Below are positions 442-25,716 of a stretch of 25,803 nt of DNA, piece by piece. Origin of the DNA: Escherichia phage CBA6; sequence record KM389300.1. One strand, 5' to 3'. The translations under genes and the position numbers were made by a program. Every line of letters starts with the position of its first letter. Positions within the stretch are counted from its first letter, which is position 1. Below the pieces are notes generated by a model. The model ran no database searches. It saw only the letters and a list, made by a program, of their open reading frames with translations, and was not told the DNA's origin.

Positions 442-960
442 ATGGCCATTTTGATATCTCCCTATTTGGGGAATATGCTTCAGACCCATCGCATCAAAAC
501 AGAAGTCAGATTTTCCGGTTTGTCACAACTTCTAACTTCTGGGGCAACTGGAATAGATTTGTTAACTGTGTTGGATGGGAAGACTCCGAACCCTTCTTCT
601 CCTACTGGTTTGGCTCCGTTCTTTAAATTATCAGATCACAAATTTCATGTGTTTCCCTATGATTCTATTCTTCCTGTGAAGGTTAATATTGTCGGATCAT
701 GGTCTGGGTCTACTTCTAATAGAACCATGATATTAGATTTTGTGGGTTCTGTGGGGAACCAGTTATCAAGAAGTCGTGATGCTAGCGTCCCGCCGCCGGA
801 CACTTTGTCTTTCATTACATTCTTCAGCGTTGACAAGGATGGGAACCTGGCGACCAACGGAGCGCAAATGAAACTGTACTCTTATGGTGGTGACTTTACC
901 ATTACCGAGGTCGTGTTGATCGCTGAGCAGGTTGTCCCACTCTATATGACTAGTATTTGA
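442..960 (+). CDS. hypothetical protein (172 aa)
   Basis: ATG at 442 with SD AAGGAGG (431..437), 9 nt after the upstream stop; Ser/Gly/Thr/Val-rich; no recognisable motif. Confidence 0.6.
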   Translation: MAILISPYLGNMLQTHRIKTEVRFSGLSQLLTSGATGIDLLTVLDGKTPNPSSPTGLAPFFKLSDHKFHVFPYDSILPVKVNIVGSWSGSTSNRTMILDFVGSVGNQLSRSRDASVPPPDTLSFITFFSVDKDGNLATNGAQMKLYSYGGDFTITEVVLIAEQVVPLYMTSI

Positions 961-1802: not shown

Positions 1803-3074
1803 ATGAACGATACACAAATAAAATGTGAAGAGACTTCATCTGGTGTCAACGATTTCGTAAACCACTGGATTGATTTAGTCAACCAAAAAACGATATTCAA
1901 CACTCTTTCACTCAGTCGTGACCAGGTTCACTGGGAAGACTATCTTTACAAACACACCCCGTGCGAACTCGTTGCCAACCCCGAAACCAATCAGCAGGTC
2001 TGGTTCAAGCGTGAAGACTACTTCGCGCCGCTGTCCAATTATGCAAATGGCCAGCAGGGCATTAATGGGAGCAAACTCCGTCAGGCCATCTGGCTCATGA
2101 TGGAGCATCTTAAAGCGGGAGGATCCCCAGATCTTATCCATGGTACTGTCGTTGGTAGTCCGCAGTCCCCTATGGCGACGGCAGTCTCACGGCATTTCGG
2201 CGGCAAGACAACCACTGTGCTGGGTGCCACTAAACCAACCACATGCATGAACCATGATATGGTTTCAATGTCAGCATGGTTTGGTAGTGAATTTAACTTT
2301 GTTGGATCTGGTTACAATAGCACCATTCAGCCGCGCTGTAAGAAACTCATTGAACAATTAAATCCAAAGGCGTATTATCTGGAATATGGCATTACATTGG
2401 ATCATACCGTTCATTCACCAGAACGCATTGCTGGATTCCATATGCTGGGTGGTGAGCAGGTTGCCAATATCCCAGACCATATCACTGATCTGATCATTCC
2501 TGCTGGTTCTTGTAATTCATGCACCAGTATCCTGACAGGTTTGGCGATGCATCCGAAACCAAATCTGAAGAATGTCTATCTGATCGGGATTGGACCTAAC
2601 CGATTAGATTTCATTGAAAGTCGTTTGCGCATTATCGGTAAGCAAGCAAACCTCCCTCACATAACTGATTTCACTCGTCGCTATCACGACAACCCAGACT
2701 ATGTGTATGGTAAGAAGGATCTTCAGCATGCCTCTAAGAGCGTTTCGTTGGCTGGCCTCCTAAGTGGTATCAGGCCAAAGAACGAGCCGGATATCGTGCT
2801 TCCTCGCTTTGAGGTACACCATTGGGATCTTCATACCACTAATTGGGTTCGTTACAACGACCTCATGGATTACCAGTGGGGGGATATTGAGTTGCATCCT
2901 CGTTATGAAGGTAAGGTCATGACATGGATACAGGAACACAAACCAGAATTGCTTAATGAGAACTCATTGTTTTGGATCGTGGGGAGCAAGCCATATCTGG
3001 AAGCGATGAAAGCTGCTTGTCCTGAATTATCAATCCCCGAACATGTCCCTGTGAATGAGTTTGTCCCCAGCTAA
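1803..3074 (+). CDS. PLP-dependent enzyme, ACC deaminase / D-cysteine desulfhydrase fold (tryptophan synthase beta-like, fold type II)
   Basis: Family motifs in order: FKREDYFAP...NGSKLRQ (KRDD...GGNKLRKLE block with candidate PLP lysine), VVGSPQSPMATAVSRHFG (GxxQSNHxR phosphate loop), IIPAGSCNSCTSILTGLA, HPRYEGKVM (DPVYTGKAM block), IVGSKP (HTGG block); 423 aa with a C-terminal extension. Confidence 0.75.
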   Translation: MNDTQIKCEETSSGVNDFVNHWIDLVNQKTIFNTLSLSRDQVHWEDYLYKHTPCELVANPETNQQVWFKREDYFAPLSNYANGQQGINGSKLRQAIWLMMEHLKAGGSPDLIHGTVVGSPQSPMATAVSRHFGGKTTTVLGATKPTTCMNHDMVSMSAWFGSEFNFVGSGYNSTIQPRCKKLIEQLNPKAYYLEYGITLDHTVHSPERIAGFHMLGGEQVANIPDHITDLIIPAGSCNSCTSILTGLAMHPKPNLKNVYLIGIGPNRLDFIESRLRIIGKQANLPHITDFTRRYHDNPDYVYGKKDLQHASKSVSLAGLLSGIRPKNEPDIVLPRFEVHHWDLHTTNWVRYNDLMDYQWGDIELHPRYEGKVMTWIQEHKPELLNENSLFWIVGSKPYLEAMKAACPELSIPEHVPVNEFVPS

Positions 3075-3084
3075 TCCATCCTAA

Positions 3085-3112
3085 ATACCCCATACGGACC
3101 AGTGTGGGGTAT
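3085..3112 (+). promoter_or_regulatory. hairpin immediately upstream of the ART-like gene start
   Basis: 8-bp stem ATACCCCA (3085..3092) pairing with TGGGGTAT (3105..3112), 12-nt loop; the G-run (3106..3109) that could act as SD for ATG 3115 lies in the 3' arm; no T-tract. Confidence 0.35.
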
Positions 3113-3114
3113 CT

Positions 3115-3564
3115 ATGAAAACCTTTCTAGAATTTTATCGCGAATCAACGCTACCTGATTTTACGAATATCGTTTTGTATCATGGGTCTAATGTTGAATT
3201 CGATATATTTGATTTTGAAAAATTTGGCCAGACTGACTCTGGTACGATGGGTGCTGGGTTTTACCTGACGGGGGATCCAGAAAAGGCACAGATCTACGCA
3301 GAAAATGCCGTGCGCTATCGTCAATCTGGTGAACCTATTGTCATGGCATTTCGTGTCAAGGCCAAGAAGACTCTTGTAATAGATTCCAACAATGTTTCGG
3401 TGTGGGAAAATAAAATGCGAGAGTTGGGGATAAAGCCTGGTAAGATACATGATAATGTGAAAGAACTTATCAACAAAGGGTTCGATTCCATAGCCTCTAT
3501 AAGTGCCAATAACGTTGAGGAAATGGTGGTGTTTAAGCCAGGGTTGGCGACCAGAGAAGCCTAA
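3115..3564 (+). CDS. putative H-Y-E class ADP-ribosyltransferase (diphtheria toxin / PARP-like minimal catalytic domain), 149 aa
   Basis: YHGS (His23); GAGFYLTGD with Tyr50 and a second Tyr61 exactly 11 residues later (as in DT Tyr54/Tyr65 and PARP1 Tyr896/Tyr907); NNVEEMVVF (Glu135/Glu136) near the C-terminus; function is inferred from motifs only. Confidence 0.5.
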   Translation: MKTFLEFYRESTLPDFTNIVLYHGSNVEFDIFDFEKFGQTDSGTMGAGFYLTGDPEKAQIYAENAVRYRQSGEPIVMAFRVKAKKTLVIDSNNVSVWENKMRELGIKPGKIHDNVKELINKGFDSIASISANNVEEMVVFKPGLATREA

Positions 3565-3599
3565 ATAGTCCAAAGCGGTTTATTCAAGAGGACATTACC

Positions 3600-4058
3600 A
3601 TGCCAATTTCGAAATTATTTGAATCTGATTCCCCAGCAGATATGCCTATCTGGACTGGTGTTCAAGACGGGACTACGATTGAATTCTTTGAGCGCGGGGA
3701 AACAGGCGCTGAAGAGATTTATGCTTCCGTACAAGGGACAGACGTCGTCCGCGCCGCCGTAGCTCTTGCTACATTTTTAGAGGACGCCCCGATTGACGGT
3801 ATCCCGTTTGAAGCCCATGTGGACCCAGAAGACCCGACGTCTATCATCATTACAGTCCAGGGTGCTGAATATACATCTTACAGTATTGAGCACGATGAAG
3901 AAACAGGGGCGCTGTTTATAGCCACGGATCTTCAATTGGAAGATGACGAAATTGAATATCTGAAACAGAATGGTCGTCTTCCGGAGTACTCTGACGAAGA
4001 ATTGGATTCTGCGTTTGATGAAGTAGACGATGAAGACGACTTTTGGGATGGGAAATAA
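3600..4058 (+). CDS. highly acidic hypothetical protein (152 aa), possible DNA mimic or partner of the ART-like protein
   Basis: ATG at 3600 with SD AGAGGA (3587..3592); very Asp/Glu-rich, ending DEVDDEDDFWDGK; 35 nt after the ART-like gene. Confidence 0.6.
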   Translation: MPISKLFESDSPADMPIWTGVQDGTTIEFFERGETGAEEIYASVQGTDVVRAAVALATFLEDAPIDGIPFEAHVDPEDPTSIIITVQGAEYTSYSIEHDEETGALFIATDLQLEDDEIEYLKQNGRLPEYSDEELDSAFDEVDDEDDFWDGK

Positions 4059-4088
4059 ACAAAGGGGCTTAATGCCCCTTTGTTTTAG
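4057..4088. terminator. bidirectional intrinsic terminator between convergent genes
   Basis: Stem AAAGGGGC (4061..4068) / GCCCCTTT (4074..4081), loop TTAAT; T-tract on both strands; sits between the + gene ending at 4058 and the - gene ending at 4085. Confidence 0.75.
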
Positions 4089-4459
4089 ATATCGTTTGTG
4101 TGTACTGTGAATCTCATTGTTACGACATCTGTTCTTTCATCCTTGTGTAATTCGAACTTCAAACCTTCCTTCAGAAGACTCGCCACCAACAATGTTTTGA
4201 ACTTTTCGACTTGCTTGTCTGTTGGGTATTTTTGAGACTTATATGCCTGTTGAAATGCGGTTAATATTTCGTCAAACCTGTGGCCACCAACAGCGTACAC
4301 CATGTCATCAATTTCAACTCCGCGATTTGCTTGGGAAACGAGTTGCTTCTTCATTTTACAAACAAAGATATCAACGGCTTTTTCAACTATCCCCATGGCT
4401 TCCCAAATCTGAGCCTGGTCAATCGTAGTCTGTAATTCTTGTGCGAAGTTCTTCATCAT
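4085..4459 (-). CDS. hypothetical protein (124 aa)
   Basis: ATG at 4459 (- strand) with SD GAGGAAGG; start overlaps the stop of the upstream - strand gene (ATGA overlap), suggesting translational coupling. Confidence 0.55.
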   Translation of the reverse strand: MMKNFAQELQTTIDQAQIWEAMGIVEKAVDIFVCKMKKQLVSQANRGVEIDDMVYAVGGHRFDEILTAFQQAYKSQKYPTDKQVEKFKTLLVASLLKEGLKFELHKDERTDVVTMRFTVHTNDI

Positions 4460-5046: not shown

Positions 5047-5577
5047 TTAGATACGGGAATCCAACCATGCATTCTTTTCATTCTGCCATTCCCAAGCGGC
5101 CTGACCACCAGCCATGATAACTTCCAGAGAAGGAGTATTGTCATCCTCGCCACCGTGTAGGTCTGGGTCAAATCCATCATCTTCAGGATCGTCTTCACAT
5201 TCGTTCTGATATGCGGAATATTCAATATAATGCGCTTCGGCTTCGCAATCCATGTCTCCTAGAGCAGTCTCAAGAGTCATTTTACCTTCGGCAATCAGCT
5301 CAGCCGTTGCGTCGTCCAGACCTGCGTCTTTCGCTTCAACGAACAGTTCGTGACGTTTCTGGAAGAAAAAGAACTGCATTGCGTCGCAGTGGTTGTCGAA
5401 CTTCTGTTTGAGTTCGCAACGAACACCCTTGACAACCGGATGGTAAACCACCATGTAACGGCCAGCAGAAATTTTGTCACCGTTTATAGCAGCGCCGAAG
5501 AAGTTACCGAAGACTTGGCCTTCGCCTGCGTCGCACAGAACGGTATTTTTGTTTGCTGTTTCTGCTAAAATTTTCAT
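5047..5577 (-). CDS. hypothetical protein (177 aa) with strongly acidic C-terminal half
   Basis: Start ATG at 5577 (MKILAETANK...) with SD AAGGAAA, about 45 nt downstream of the early-type promoter; the longer ORF to 5757 is an SD-less extension; C-terminal half rich in D/E. Confidence 0.55.
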   Translation of the reverse strand: MKILAETANKNTVLCDAGEGQVFGNFFGAAINGDKISAGRYMVVYHPVVKGVRCELKQKFDNHCDAMQFFFFQKRHELFVEAKDAGLDDATAELIAEGKMTLETALGDMDCEAEAHYIEYSAYQNECEDDPEDDGFDPDLHGGEDDNTPSLEVIMAGGQAAWEWQNEKNAWLDSRI

Positions 5578-5626
5578 GATGTATTTCCTTCTCTTCAGAT
5601 TGTTGTTTGTTCGTACTACAATTAGA

Positions 5627-5655
5627 AGTATACGCCAGTTATTGAAGAAGTAAAC
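5627..5655 (-). promoter_or_regulatory. T4 early-type (sigma70-like) promoter on the - strand
   Basis: On the - strand: -35 GTTTAC (5655..5650), 17-nt spacer, -10 TATACT (5632..5627), with an A/T-rich block upstream (5656..5680); positioned to drive the gene starting at 5577. Confidence 0.5.
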
Positions 5656-5672
5656 TTTATTCAATAAATATT

Positions 5673-5885
5673 TTAATAAATTTTGAACTCTGCTCCCCTG
5701 TATGTCGCCGATCCTCGTTCTATGAGGCCGTCGGGGACAATTACCTTTGTGGGCCATCCGCCGTCCGGTGCTTTGACAGTCAGGCGTGTCTTATGATCAC
5801 CCAGCTGAATCTGTTCGTAAATCCTTCCTCTCACTATCGTCGCCCCGCCTTGGGTGACCAGCAATCTCTTGTTTACCACTTTCAT
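5673..5885 (-). CDS. small hypothetical protein (70 aa)
   Basis: Single ATG at 5885; AAGGA lies only 1-2 nt from the ATG (poor spacing) and the gene sits between a terminator and a downstream promoter, so expression is uncertain. Confidence 0.4.
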   Translation of the reverse strand: MKVVNKRLLVTQGGATIVRGRIYEQIQLGDHKTRLTVKAPDGGWPTKVIVPDGLIERGSATYRGAEFKIY

Positions 5886-5889
5886 TCCT

Positions 5890-5921
5890 TAACACCAAAA
5901 GAAAGGGGAGTTTCCTCCCCT
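5890..5921 (-). terminator. intrinsic terminator (- strand)
   Basis: Stem AGGGGAG (5904..5910) / CTCCCCT (5915..5921), loop TTTC; on the - strand it is followed by TTTCTTTTGG; lies just after the stop of the membrane-protein gene. Confidence 0.6.
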
Positions 5922-5926
5922 CTAAC

Positions 5927-24827: not shown

Positions 24828-25049
24828 ATGAAGAGCTTCCAGGATTACCTAGAAGACTCTTCGGCTCCGGCCACCACTACCGCTGATGTGGGGAAACCCG
24901 AAGGCGGTATGGTTCAAGAACCTGTCAAGAGACCGAAAGATCTTGAAGAAGAGTCAGGGTTTAAAAAGATCTTCGGTAATATATTCAAAGACCTTGACCT
25001 ATCCAAGGCCAGGAAATGGAATTTCAGGACAGGCAAATATGACGATTAA
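24828..25049 (+). CDS. small hypothetical protein (73 aa)
   Basis: ATG at 24828, 3 nt after the upstream stop; charged and Pro/Lys-rich; followed by a strong terminator. Confidence 0.45.
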   Translation: MKSFQDYLEDSSAPATTTADVGKPEGGMVQEPVKRPKDLEEESGFKKIFGNIFKDLDLSKARKWNFRTGKYDD

Positions 25050-25137: not shown

Positions 25138-25716
25138 ATGAAATCTTTAGTTAAACGAAAAGTAGAAGTATCCCTTAATGCGCATATTGAAATGCTACAA
25201 CAATTGGTTCTAGATGCGTATGAAATTCAAAAAGATCGCCGGATTCGTCACGACCTTGATCCCGCAGACAGTGGGAGCATGCTCTACTATCGAATGCTTC
25301 GCCAGACTGGTCACACTGCGGCGTTAAAGAAACTCCTTTCTGAAAAATTCCAAATTGAAAATGACATCGACGTATTCGGTGTATTTCACACTGCGGCGTT
25401 AAAGAAACTCCTTTCTGAAAAATTCCAAATTGAAAATGACATCGACGTATTCGGTGTATTTCACACTGCTCGTGAACGTGATACGTTTTTCACTCAATCG
25501 AAAAATGTAACCACAGGGGAGCAGTATGAAAAATTTGATCGAAAAGAGAAAACGTCGACCATGGCCAATTTTATGGGAACCAAAATCGACAAGGCCAATA
25601 TCATCGTGTTTTCAGATACTCTGCATGATGCTAAGCGCCTTTCCGCTGCCCATCAAATGTTAAAAGATAATCGCAGCTGCTTTACAAATTTGACTTTAGT
25701 AGTGTTTCTGGGCTAG
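25138..25716 (+). CDS. hypothetical protein (192 aa) containing a perfect 25-aa tandem duplication
   Basis: ATG at 25138 with SD GAGG (25124..25127); internal repeat HTAALKKLLSEKFQIENDIDVFGVF x2 encoded by identical 75-bp units. Confidence 0.6.
   Translation: MKSLVKRKVEVSLNAHIEMLQQLVLDAYEIQKDRRIRHDLDPADSGSMLYYRMLRQTGHTAALKKLLSEKFQIENDIDVFGVFHTAALKKLLSEKFQIENDIDVFGVFHTARERDTFFTQSKNVTTGEQYEKFDRKEKTSTMANFMGTKIDKANIIVFSDTLHDAKRLSAAHQMLKDNRSCFTNLTLVVFLG
25312..25461 (+). repeat. perfect 75-bp direct tandem duplication (2 copies), in frame within a CDS
   Basis: 25312..25386 and 25387..25461 are identical base for base; each copy begins CACACTGC, and the same 8-mer follows the second copy at 25462. 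Confidence 0.9.

Follow-up and report, generated by a model that had tools for sequence, protein, structure and literature searches.

Several described phage systems offer models for small proteins that travel in the particle or imitate DNA. In phage T4, the internal proteins IPI-IPIII and Alt are late products that occur in purified particles and whose genes lie apart from the main head cluster. In the T4 capsid-targeting sequence (CTS), MKTYQEFIAE (PMC8442874), targeting depends on positions 4 and 7, and processing on 8 and 10 (PMC9026906). Other models are the DNA mimics Ocr of T7, ArdA and Arn of T4, and the Dar proteins of phage P1, which two reports describe as anti-restriction factors loaded in the head and delivered with the DNA (PMC12810830, PMC5512222). 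Here we examine a stretch of 25,803 nucleotides from Escherichia phage CBA6 (record KM389300.1; the whole stretch is hereafter the window), in which an open reading frame (ORF) at 3600..4058 encodes an extremely acidic protein beside the gene of an ADP-ribosyltransferase (ART). Purified virions of three different Ackermannviridae contain this acidic protein, and we tentatively propose that it is a late, particle-borne and probably head-internal polyanion, ejected at infection and independent of the ART.

Virion association and family of the acidic protein

The particle data come from published proteomes and records. The LIMEstone1 products of ORF173, homologous to the ART, and ORF174, homologous to the acidic protein, were listed as "confirmed structural proteins" by electrospray ionization tandem mass spectrometry, with one peptide each (PMC3296691). 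In CsCl-purified virions of Sajous1, the orthologue gp115 gave 31 spectra and the ART gp116 gave 10 (PMC10892097), to be compared with 33 for a neck protein and 52 for the tail tube. Because these 31 spectra were obtained despite only six tryptic sites and about two peptides suited to mass spectrometry, they suggest an appreciable copy number of gp115 in the virions. The ViI record labels Vi01_179, Vi01_180, Vi01_183 and Vi01_184 as "phage associated protein", and not Vi01_181 or Vi01_182; the same pattern recurs in Sajous1, where gp120, gp119, gp116 and gp115 were detected in virions and gp118 and gp117 went undetected. According to the CBA120 paper, proteomics of ViI defined 41 particle-associated proteins. 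The proteomes of AG3, phiD3, PD10.3 and EspM4VN covered major gel bands only and are uninformative on the acidic protein. With membership of the virion in hand, the question becomes what a packaged polyanion does.

The protein is known under several names (orf230 in CBA120, Vi01_184 in ViI, ORF174 in LIMEstone1, gp115 in Sajous1, PHROG 3852), and its label in the literature since 2010-2012 has been "unknown structural protein". New here are its core-gene status, its independence of the ART, its conserved terminal motifs and the T4-like targeting context. The preliminary description of the window, made from the sequence alone, had singled out a highly acidic product of 152 residues lacking any enzyme motif, and it was right on these points: 20 Asp and 21 Glu (27%) stand against 3 Lys and 3 Arg, the computed isoelectric point (pI) is 4.05 and the net charge -35, the three acidic runs then quoted (DEVDDEDDFWDGK, EDDEIEY and SDEELDS) are all in the translation, and neither Pfam, NCBIfam nor PADLOC returns a match, the only assignment being PHROG 3852, a family without an annotated function. 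The charge is spread along the whole chain, in the core and in the last 27 residues alike (Table 1). The ORF ranks first in acidity among the 37 of the window with at least 100 residues, and its Sajous1 orthologue (98% identical) is the most acidic of the 280 ORFs of at least 80 residues in that complete genome, at -0.23 charges per residue against -0.145 for the runner-up. This acidity is far beyond chance, and the ORF is a real gene, with 277 homologue records and detection by mass spectrometry in virions.

The region is 99% identical to Kuttervirus phages of the Ackermannviridae (SFP10, CBA120, PhiSH19, Det7 and others). Between genera, LIMEstone1 ORF174 retains 74% identity to the acidic protein, and the net charge stays at -30 to -39 in all the homologues checked, the most distant at about 40% identity, so that the non-acidic relatives which would have told against the earlier interpretation did not appear among them. 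The family is very small. A profile search of 1.84 billion cluster representatives matched only 7 clusters, all of the protein's own family, and phmmer and profile searches of the PDB gave no match; at the syntenic site of Vibrio and Pseudomonas relatives no homologue was detected. The deposited ViI orthologue Vi01_184 (NC_015296; 6338..6793 of the compared stretch) diverges fully over residues 41-60 (MHRYRARMCPRCR-SPCNVLRRR) and then returns to 100% identity, as a frameshift that is later compensated would produce; the cause is probably an error in the deposited sequence.

The gene directly upstream had been read as ART-like, ending 35 nucleotides before the acidic ORF on the same strand. The spacing is exact, and the product of 3115..3564 matches Pfam ART-PolyVal at 41.1 bits (gathering threshold 31.2; E-value 4e-10). 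This closeness, together with the presence of both products in virions, invites the idea that the acidic protein is a cognate inhibitor, antidote or packaging chaperone of the ART, as the preliminary description had offered as an alternative. The distribution of the two genes disfavours it. All 277 records with the acidic gene are enterobacterial phages of Ackermannviridae type, in which it is a core gene (277/277), and its counts by genus (Salmonella 160, Klebsiella 44, Escherichia 28, Dickeya 19, Serratia 10, Shigella 6, Erwinia 4, Enterobacter 3) are identical to those of the family's enzyme dependent on pyridoxal phosphate (PLP). The ART is detectable in only 229 records and missing from nearly all Serratia, Erwinia and Shigella phages, so that the acidic gene occurs without it in at least 48 records.

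Loci checked directly agree with these counts. In Bue1, phiMAM1 and Kevin there is no ART, and a homologue of the window's 233-residue "MRNV" protein lies directly upstream of the acidic gene. Shigella phage AG3 preserves 14 codons of the ART C-terminus at 64% identity (2921..2962 of the compared stretch), inside the 145 nucleotides that separate the PLP gene from the acidic gene, which is intact (net charge -37 for its product); this remnant is the footprint of an ART deletion in Agtrevirus. Moreover, each of the two genes has its own promoter-like motif, and in the family alignment the acidic protein is no less conserved where the ART is missing. From the 277 and 229 records, the ART-less loci and the AG3 remnant, the acidic gene reads as core and the ART as an accessory lost repeatedly. 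The ART is context for the acidic gene and not an obligate partner, and the partner idea, as a primary function, is already largely refuted; we regard it as hardly tenable.

Expression signals and proposed capsid targeting

The acidic gene is preceded by a motif of late type, CTAAATA, and not by a sigma-70 promoter, and the ART stop codon (3562..3564) is embedded in this element. Motifs of the CTAAATAcCcc type stand 33-45 nucleotides upstream of the gene at all eight loci compared; at each of the seven others (LIMEstone1, AG3, Menlow, Vi01, Bue1, phiMAM1 and Kevin, the last three at about 40% protein identity) the form cTAAATAcCCCA lies 35-45 nucleotides ahead. CTAAATAcCcc is a recognised Ackermannviridae regulatory motif (PMC7283392), and the LIMEstone1 record annotates it as a putative late promoter. 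A variant, ATAAATAG, follows a terminator, ahead of the first gene of the cluster. The raw number of CTAAATA words in the window is not significant (3 against 2.4 expected), and the promoter argument is built on the position and conservation of the motif instead. Given this placement, the likeness of the motif to the T4 late promoter TATAAATA, and the gp55, gp33 and gp45 homologues encoded by this phage family, late expression of the acidic gene is likely. A literature search for Ackermannviridae transcriptomes returned nothing relevant.

An AlphaFold2 model built on an alignment of 27 sequences (mean predicted local distance difference test, pLDDT, of 73.7) divides the protein into a short N-terminal segment, a confident alpha/beta core and a polyacidic tail (residues 126-152, pLDDT 34-43) that is disordered over residues 131-152. 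In alignments reaching down to 33% identity, S4, L6 and F7 of the N-terminus are invariant and E8 nearly so, while the tail keeps D147 and W149 without exception, and D146 and F148 with few exceptions; another invariant segment, E117-x-x-Y-L-x-x-x-G-x-L-P, closes the core. Disordered in the model yet invariant in the alignment, the two termini resemble functional linear motifs. Foldseek against the PDB gave no fold relative (best E-value 0.3), and a search of BFVD with the model returned only the protein's own family. Type III secretion chaperones, which are small and acidic (ExsC, ShcA, SpcS, SicP) and whose class I fold has the order alpha-beta-beta-beta-alpha-beta-beta-alpha, recur among the weak matches of both methods below significance, a model-based likeness that we treat as a lead only. 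We also considered the tail as a mimic of the C-terminal tail of SSB. In Escherichia coli SSB this tail (...DDDIPF-COOH) has its aromatic or hydrophobic residue at the very C-terminus, and the free carboxylate is recognised. The D-F-W motif of the acidic protein is not C-terminal, being followed by 0 to 9 further residues (WDGK, WEE, WVSPSGAGVE and others), and the candidate was rejected.

A T4-style head-cargo system very likely operates in this phage family, as suggested by CTS-like N-termini on virion proteins and by a gp21-type prohead protease (Peptidase U9 in PhiSH19; Sajous1 gp155, within the portal-core-protease-scaffold-capsid cluster gp153-gp157). Taking as the CTS feature an aromatic residue at positions 4 and 7, a hydrophobic one at 8 and Glu at 10, the N-terminus of the ART is near-canonical (Table 1), and its relatives read MKTFLQYLQE in LIMEstone1 and MKTFLDFLRE in Menlow. 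When the complete Sajous1 genome was scanned in six frames, the ART and an ORF of 73 residues alone carried the strict pattern; a relaxed one adds gp215 and gp216, with a shifted version, MAIPSFLNFLEE, on gp214. These three gave 196 (gp214), 32 (gp215) and 20 (gp216) spectra in Sajous1 virions, and their N-termini suggest head-internal cargo.

Several observations accompany these candidates. The N-termini of gp215 and gp216 are MKPFIEYFKE and MKGFPDFLKE (gp214-gp216 occupy 33642..36898 of the compared Sajous1 stretch), and CTAAATAC motifs lie upstream of gp215 and gp217. The 73-residue ORF is found in the window at 24828..25049 (+), directly after a Hoc-like gene with an Ig domain, and starts with MKSFQDYLED. 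Its position 10 is Asp, which in T4 blocks processing and not targeting, and its product is likely to be a small internal head protein.

The acidic protein itself begins with MPISKLFESD, in which F7 and the acidic residue at position 10 match the CTS; in phiMAM1 and Kevin the N-terminus is MLESKLFLKE, with F7-L8-K9-E10. Closer than the CTS is the propeptide of T4 Alt (MELITELFDE), whose ITELFD aligns with ISKLFE of the acidic protein, and LFE/S (the slash marking the cut) fits the L-x-E cleavage motif of T4-type prohead proteases. The acidic gene is the only real gene of the Sajous1 genome with this N-terminal pattern. Residues 1-16 are thus a candidate capsid-targeting and processing propeptide, and head targeting of the protein seems to us somewhat more probable than its absence. 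When the cleavage site of T4 gp23 was mapped onto the Kuttervirus capsid protein the local site was ambiguous, and the resemblance of NLGE/SDAP in that protein to KLFE/SDSP in the acidic protein is a hint only.

Possible roles of a packaged polyanion

The sequence of events that we tentatively favour would start with transcription of the acidic gene late in infection, probably from its own CTAAATA-type promoter, and its product would very probably be built into virions in appreciable copy number, as the proteomics of three phages indicates. Loading into the prohead core through the N-terminal S-x-L-F-E, with trimming after Glu by the gp21-type protease, is modelled on T4 Alt and the internal proteins, and would be marginally favoured. 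At infection the protein may leave the capsid with the DNA, a step for which the balance tips slightly to the other side. Inside the cell, its polyanionic surface and flexible D-F-W tail might bind basic nucleic-acid-binding host proteins as a decoy, which is doubtful; such a decoy would be a pre-made, DNA-mimic-like protector or take-over factor, in place before any phage gene expression.

Several points weigh against this proposal. The Sajous1 virion list also contains proteins expected to be non-structural (RegB with 31 spectra, ParB and SSB), and spectral counts alone are therefore not proof of packaging, while the identification of LIMEstone1 ORF174 is that by a single peptide. We infer a place in the head interior, and not in the tail, the neck or on the capsid surface, for a protein whose N-terminus is only partly CTS-like, with Ser instead of an aromatic residue at position 4 and Glu at position 8. 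Strict conservation combined with acidity fits an assembly role better than an effector in an arms race, and the searches turned up no known DNA mimic that it resembles in fold or sequence.

That last point bears directly on the preliminary description, which had proposed a DNA mimic that blocks restriction or other defences. The acidity on which this proposal was founded is held in all homologues checked; the absence of a sequence or fold match to known mimics and the late signals speak against the rest, and DNA mimicry by the acidic protein is possible but unsupported. Packaging could stand in for early expression, in which case a decoy stored in the capsid would be ejected with, or just ahead of, the hypermodified genome and would neutralise DNA-sensing defences or nucleoid proteins before phage genes are expressed. 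We consider this packaged nucleic-acid mimic unlikely; if true, DNA mimicry would gain a new fold and a new mode of delivery, and the basic internal proteins of T4 would have their first acidic counterpart. Less likely is a variant in which the protein acts as a particle-resident chaperone, similar to those of type III secretion, for CTS cargo such as the ART. The DNA of this phage family carries the positively charged 5-NeOmdU on about 40% of its thymidines, and a link between that charge and the acidic protein is speculation.

The chief rival explanation is an assembly or structural role, where the protein would be a polyanionic component of the prohead scaffold or core, like T4 gp67 or gp22, balancing very basic core proteins and setting head shape or DNA packing, with no role in the infected cell. 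The strict core-gene distribution (277/277) and the high conservation between genera (74% identity) agree with it, as do the late promoter motif and the virion detection that it shares with our proposal. T4 gp67 is itself a core protein of 80 residues with net charge -25 and a polyacidic C-terminal tail, and the Kuttervirus ORF at the gp67 position, gp153 (56 residues, net -8), has no such tail, its neighbour gp154 being at +23. However, the acidic protein aligns with T4 gp67 at an hhalign probability of only 0.2%, its gene lies 40 kb from the head-morphogenesis cluster, beside the ART and a hypermodification enzyme, and its predicted alpha/beta core is unlike the coiled coils of scaffolds. 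Most scaffold protein, moreover, is degraded and leaves the head, whereas a substantial amount of the acidic protein stays in the mature virion. On balance we find an assembly role rather unlikely, ahead of the explanations that follow.

A structural role on the outside of the particle or on the tail (as a decoration, neck, baseplate or tail-tip accessory), without injection, would account for the proteomics-based annotation "structural protein" and for the late gene cluster shared with a homologue of the Sf6/HS1 tail-needle knob (E-value 6e-26), and the invariant terminal motifs could then be docking peptides. Such a placement is improbable in view of the lack of any homology or fold match to tail, neck or decoration proteins, of a predicted disorder of about 30% of the chain, unusual in a lattice component, and of an N-terminus like those of head-targeting propeptides next to a co-detected ART with a canonical head CTS. 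The protein might, on the other hand, be no true virion component at all, and represent an abundant late cytoplasmic product that co-purifies with particles and acts in the producing cell, for example as a DNA mimic. The company of RegB, ParB and SSB in the Sajous1 list and the one peptide of LIMEstone1 are consistent with this. However, three phages handled in three laboratories with different purification and mass spectrometry schemes agree, and all show one pattern over the six-gene cluster, in which neither the PLP enzyme nor the 233-residue protein is ever detected. A polyanion, moreover, should not stick to negatively charged DNA, and a late promoter would act at the wrong time to protect incoming DNA; co-purification is thus very improbable.

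Features of the window and comparison with known systems

Table 1. Coordinates of the acidic gene, its signals and its neighbours in the window (Escherichia phage CBA6, KM389300.1)
Feature	Position	Strand	Remarks
Coding sequence, acidic virion protein of 152 residues	3600..4058	+	ATG to TAA
Residues 1-16, predicted disordered N-terminal segment	3600..3647	+	Low pLDDT; invariant columns
Residues 17-125, predicted folded alpha/beta core, b-b-b-a-b-b-b-b-a	3648..3974	+	Net charge about -24; conserved E-x-x-Y-L-x-x-N-G-x-L-P segment at end
Residues 126-152, polyacidic C-terminal tail	3975..4055	+	Net charge about -11; D-[DE]-D-F-W motif
Late-promoter-like motif CCTAAATAGTCC (family motif CTAAATAcCcc)	3560..3571	+	33 nucleotides upstream of the ATG of the acidic gene
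Shine-Dalgarno-like AAGAGGA	3586..3592	+	7 nucleotides before the ATG; read from the sequence
Bidirectional intrinsic terminator, common to the convergent gene 4085..4459 (-)	4057..4090	.	Terminator scan of both strands
ART-PolyVal ADP-ribosyltransferase, also a virion protein	3115..3564	+	Pfam match; virion detection
ART residues 1-10, MKTFLEFYRE, near-canonical T4 CTS	3115..3144	+	All four positions match
ART late-promoter-like motif CTAAATACCCC	3081..3091 (element 3080..3112)	+	Overlaps the leader hairpin
Leader hairpin of the ART, 11 bp	3085..3112	+	Ends 2 nucleotides before the ART ATG
Second acidic protein, 176 residues, PHROG 4823	5047..5577	-	Net charge -22, pI 4.30; ORF and charge computation

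The terminator behind the acidic gene (Table 1) has a fold energy of -19.7 kcal/mol (z -5.2), and terminators are annotated at the same place in LIMEstone1 and AG3. The leader hairpin of the ART (-18.3 kcal/mol, z -3.6) begins within the CTAAATACCCC motif and covers the only G-rich stretch resembling a Shine-Dalgarno sequence. Its stem is kept in LIMEstone1, Menlow and Vi01. The acidic gene of Bue1, phiMAM1 and Kevin also has such a hairpin in front of it, although the stem differs in sequence. The leader hairpin may serve as a 5'-terminal stabiliser of the mRNA or as a translational throttle. An Rfam scan of the window gave no match.

A second protein with an acidic half had also been pointed out; it is real and is encoded on the minus strand (Table 1). 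Sequence comparison finds no kinship between the two acidic ORFs. This second product is the third most acidic of the genome type and absent from the virion lists; its gene belongs to a leftward non-structural cluster and has a sigma-70-like promoter (5654..5627) about 50 nucleotides upstream. It is a better candidate than the product of 3600..4058 for a classical early cytoplasmic DNA mimic.

Other genes of the window deserve mention. The PLP-dependent enzyme (1803..3074, +), recognised by a weak PALP match, lies among virion-protein genes and was not detected in virions, and most records annotate its start 27 codons downstream (396 residues). It is an enzyme of the type of ViI gp226, one of five products sufficient for 5-NeOmdU thymidine hypermodification (PMC5889632). 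The virion protein encoded at 442..960 (+) is the homologue of the Sf6/HS1 tail-needle knob domains (PDB 3rwn and 4k6b; E-value ~6e-26), and it sits in a myovirus without a P22-type needle. Finally, an ORF of 192 residues at 25138..25716 (+) has about 29 residues duplicated perfectly in tandem in its translation (HTAALKKLLSEKFQIENDIDVFGVF, present twice), which points to a duplication of recent date or to an artefact of assembly.

Ackermannviridae such as ViI, CBA120, Det7 and LIMEstone are widely used for biocontrol and therapy, and most of their functionally unannotated virion proteins have no assigned location or role. These phages appear to have a T4-style capsid-targeting system with the ART, gp214-gp216 and the 73-residue protein as cargo, and their particles carry the most acidic protein that the genome encodes, the product of a core gene. 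The proteins that are likely to enter the cell together with the DNA are thereby named concretely. If the acidic protein were an ejected decoy, DNA mimicry would come to include a weapon loaded in advance, and the broad host range would be explained in part; if it were an assembly factor, it would be a new type of head-core component.

The internal proteins and Alt of T4 are among the closest known systems. The acidic gene likewise appears to be late, lies outside the main head cluster and has its product in purified particles. The likeness extends to the machinery of head packaging, with a gp21-type protease, a near-identical CTS on the neighbouring ART, and an Alt-like N-terminus followed by an L-x-E site. 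However, the T4 internal proteins are small, basic and poorly conserved, whereas the acidic protein is strictly conserved at net charge -35, and its N-terminus agrees with the T4 CTS at no positions other than 7 and 10.

Phage T4 gp67 provides the precedent for charge, being a small late head-core protein, from which acidic internal peptides derive, with a pI of about 4.05 and a polyacidic C-terminal tail. By analogy, it shows that the interiors of T4-like capsids tolerate extreme polyanions, which supports the feasibility of a capsid location and also the assembly rival. In architecture the two proteins differ: gp67 consists of helices and a tail, and its gene stands between those of the portal and the protease; the acidic protein has a predicted alpha/beta core of about 110 residues and is encoded elsewhere. 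As a homologue, gp67 was rejected on the hhalign probability given above. The positions of T4 gp67 and gp68, between portal and protease, are occupied in Sajous1 (5427..5923 of the compared stretch) by the acidic gp153 and by gp154, which has 104 residues.

With Ocr, ArdA and Arn the acidic protein has in common a small size, a pI of about 4, the lack of enzymatic motifs and an origin in a virulent phage. Searches of Pfam, the PDB and Foldseek showed no sequence or fold relationship to these or to other solved proteins. Its expression signals are late and not immediate-early, about 11 of its 35 net negative charges fall in the predicted disordered tail and not on a rigid DNA-shaped surface, and it is packaged in virions, which is not known of these mimics. 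In concept, anti-restriction factors that are loaded in the head and enter with the DNA bring it near to the Dar system of P1, although the Dar proteins are large and not polyacidic and no sequence similarity between them and the acidic protein was detected.

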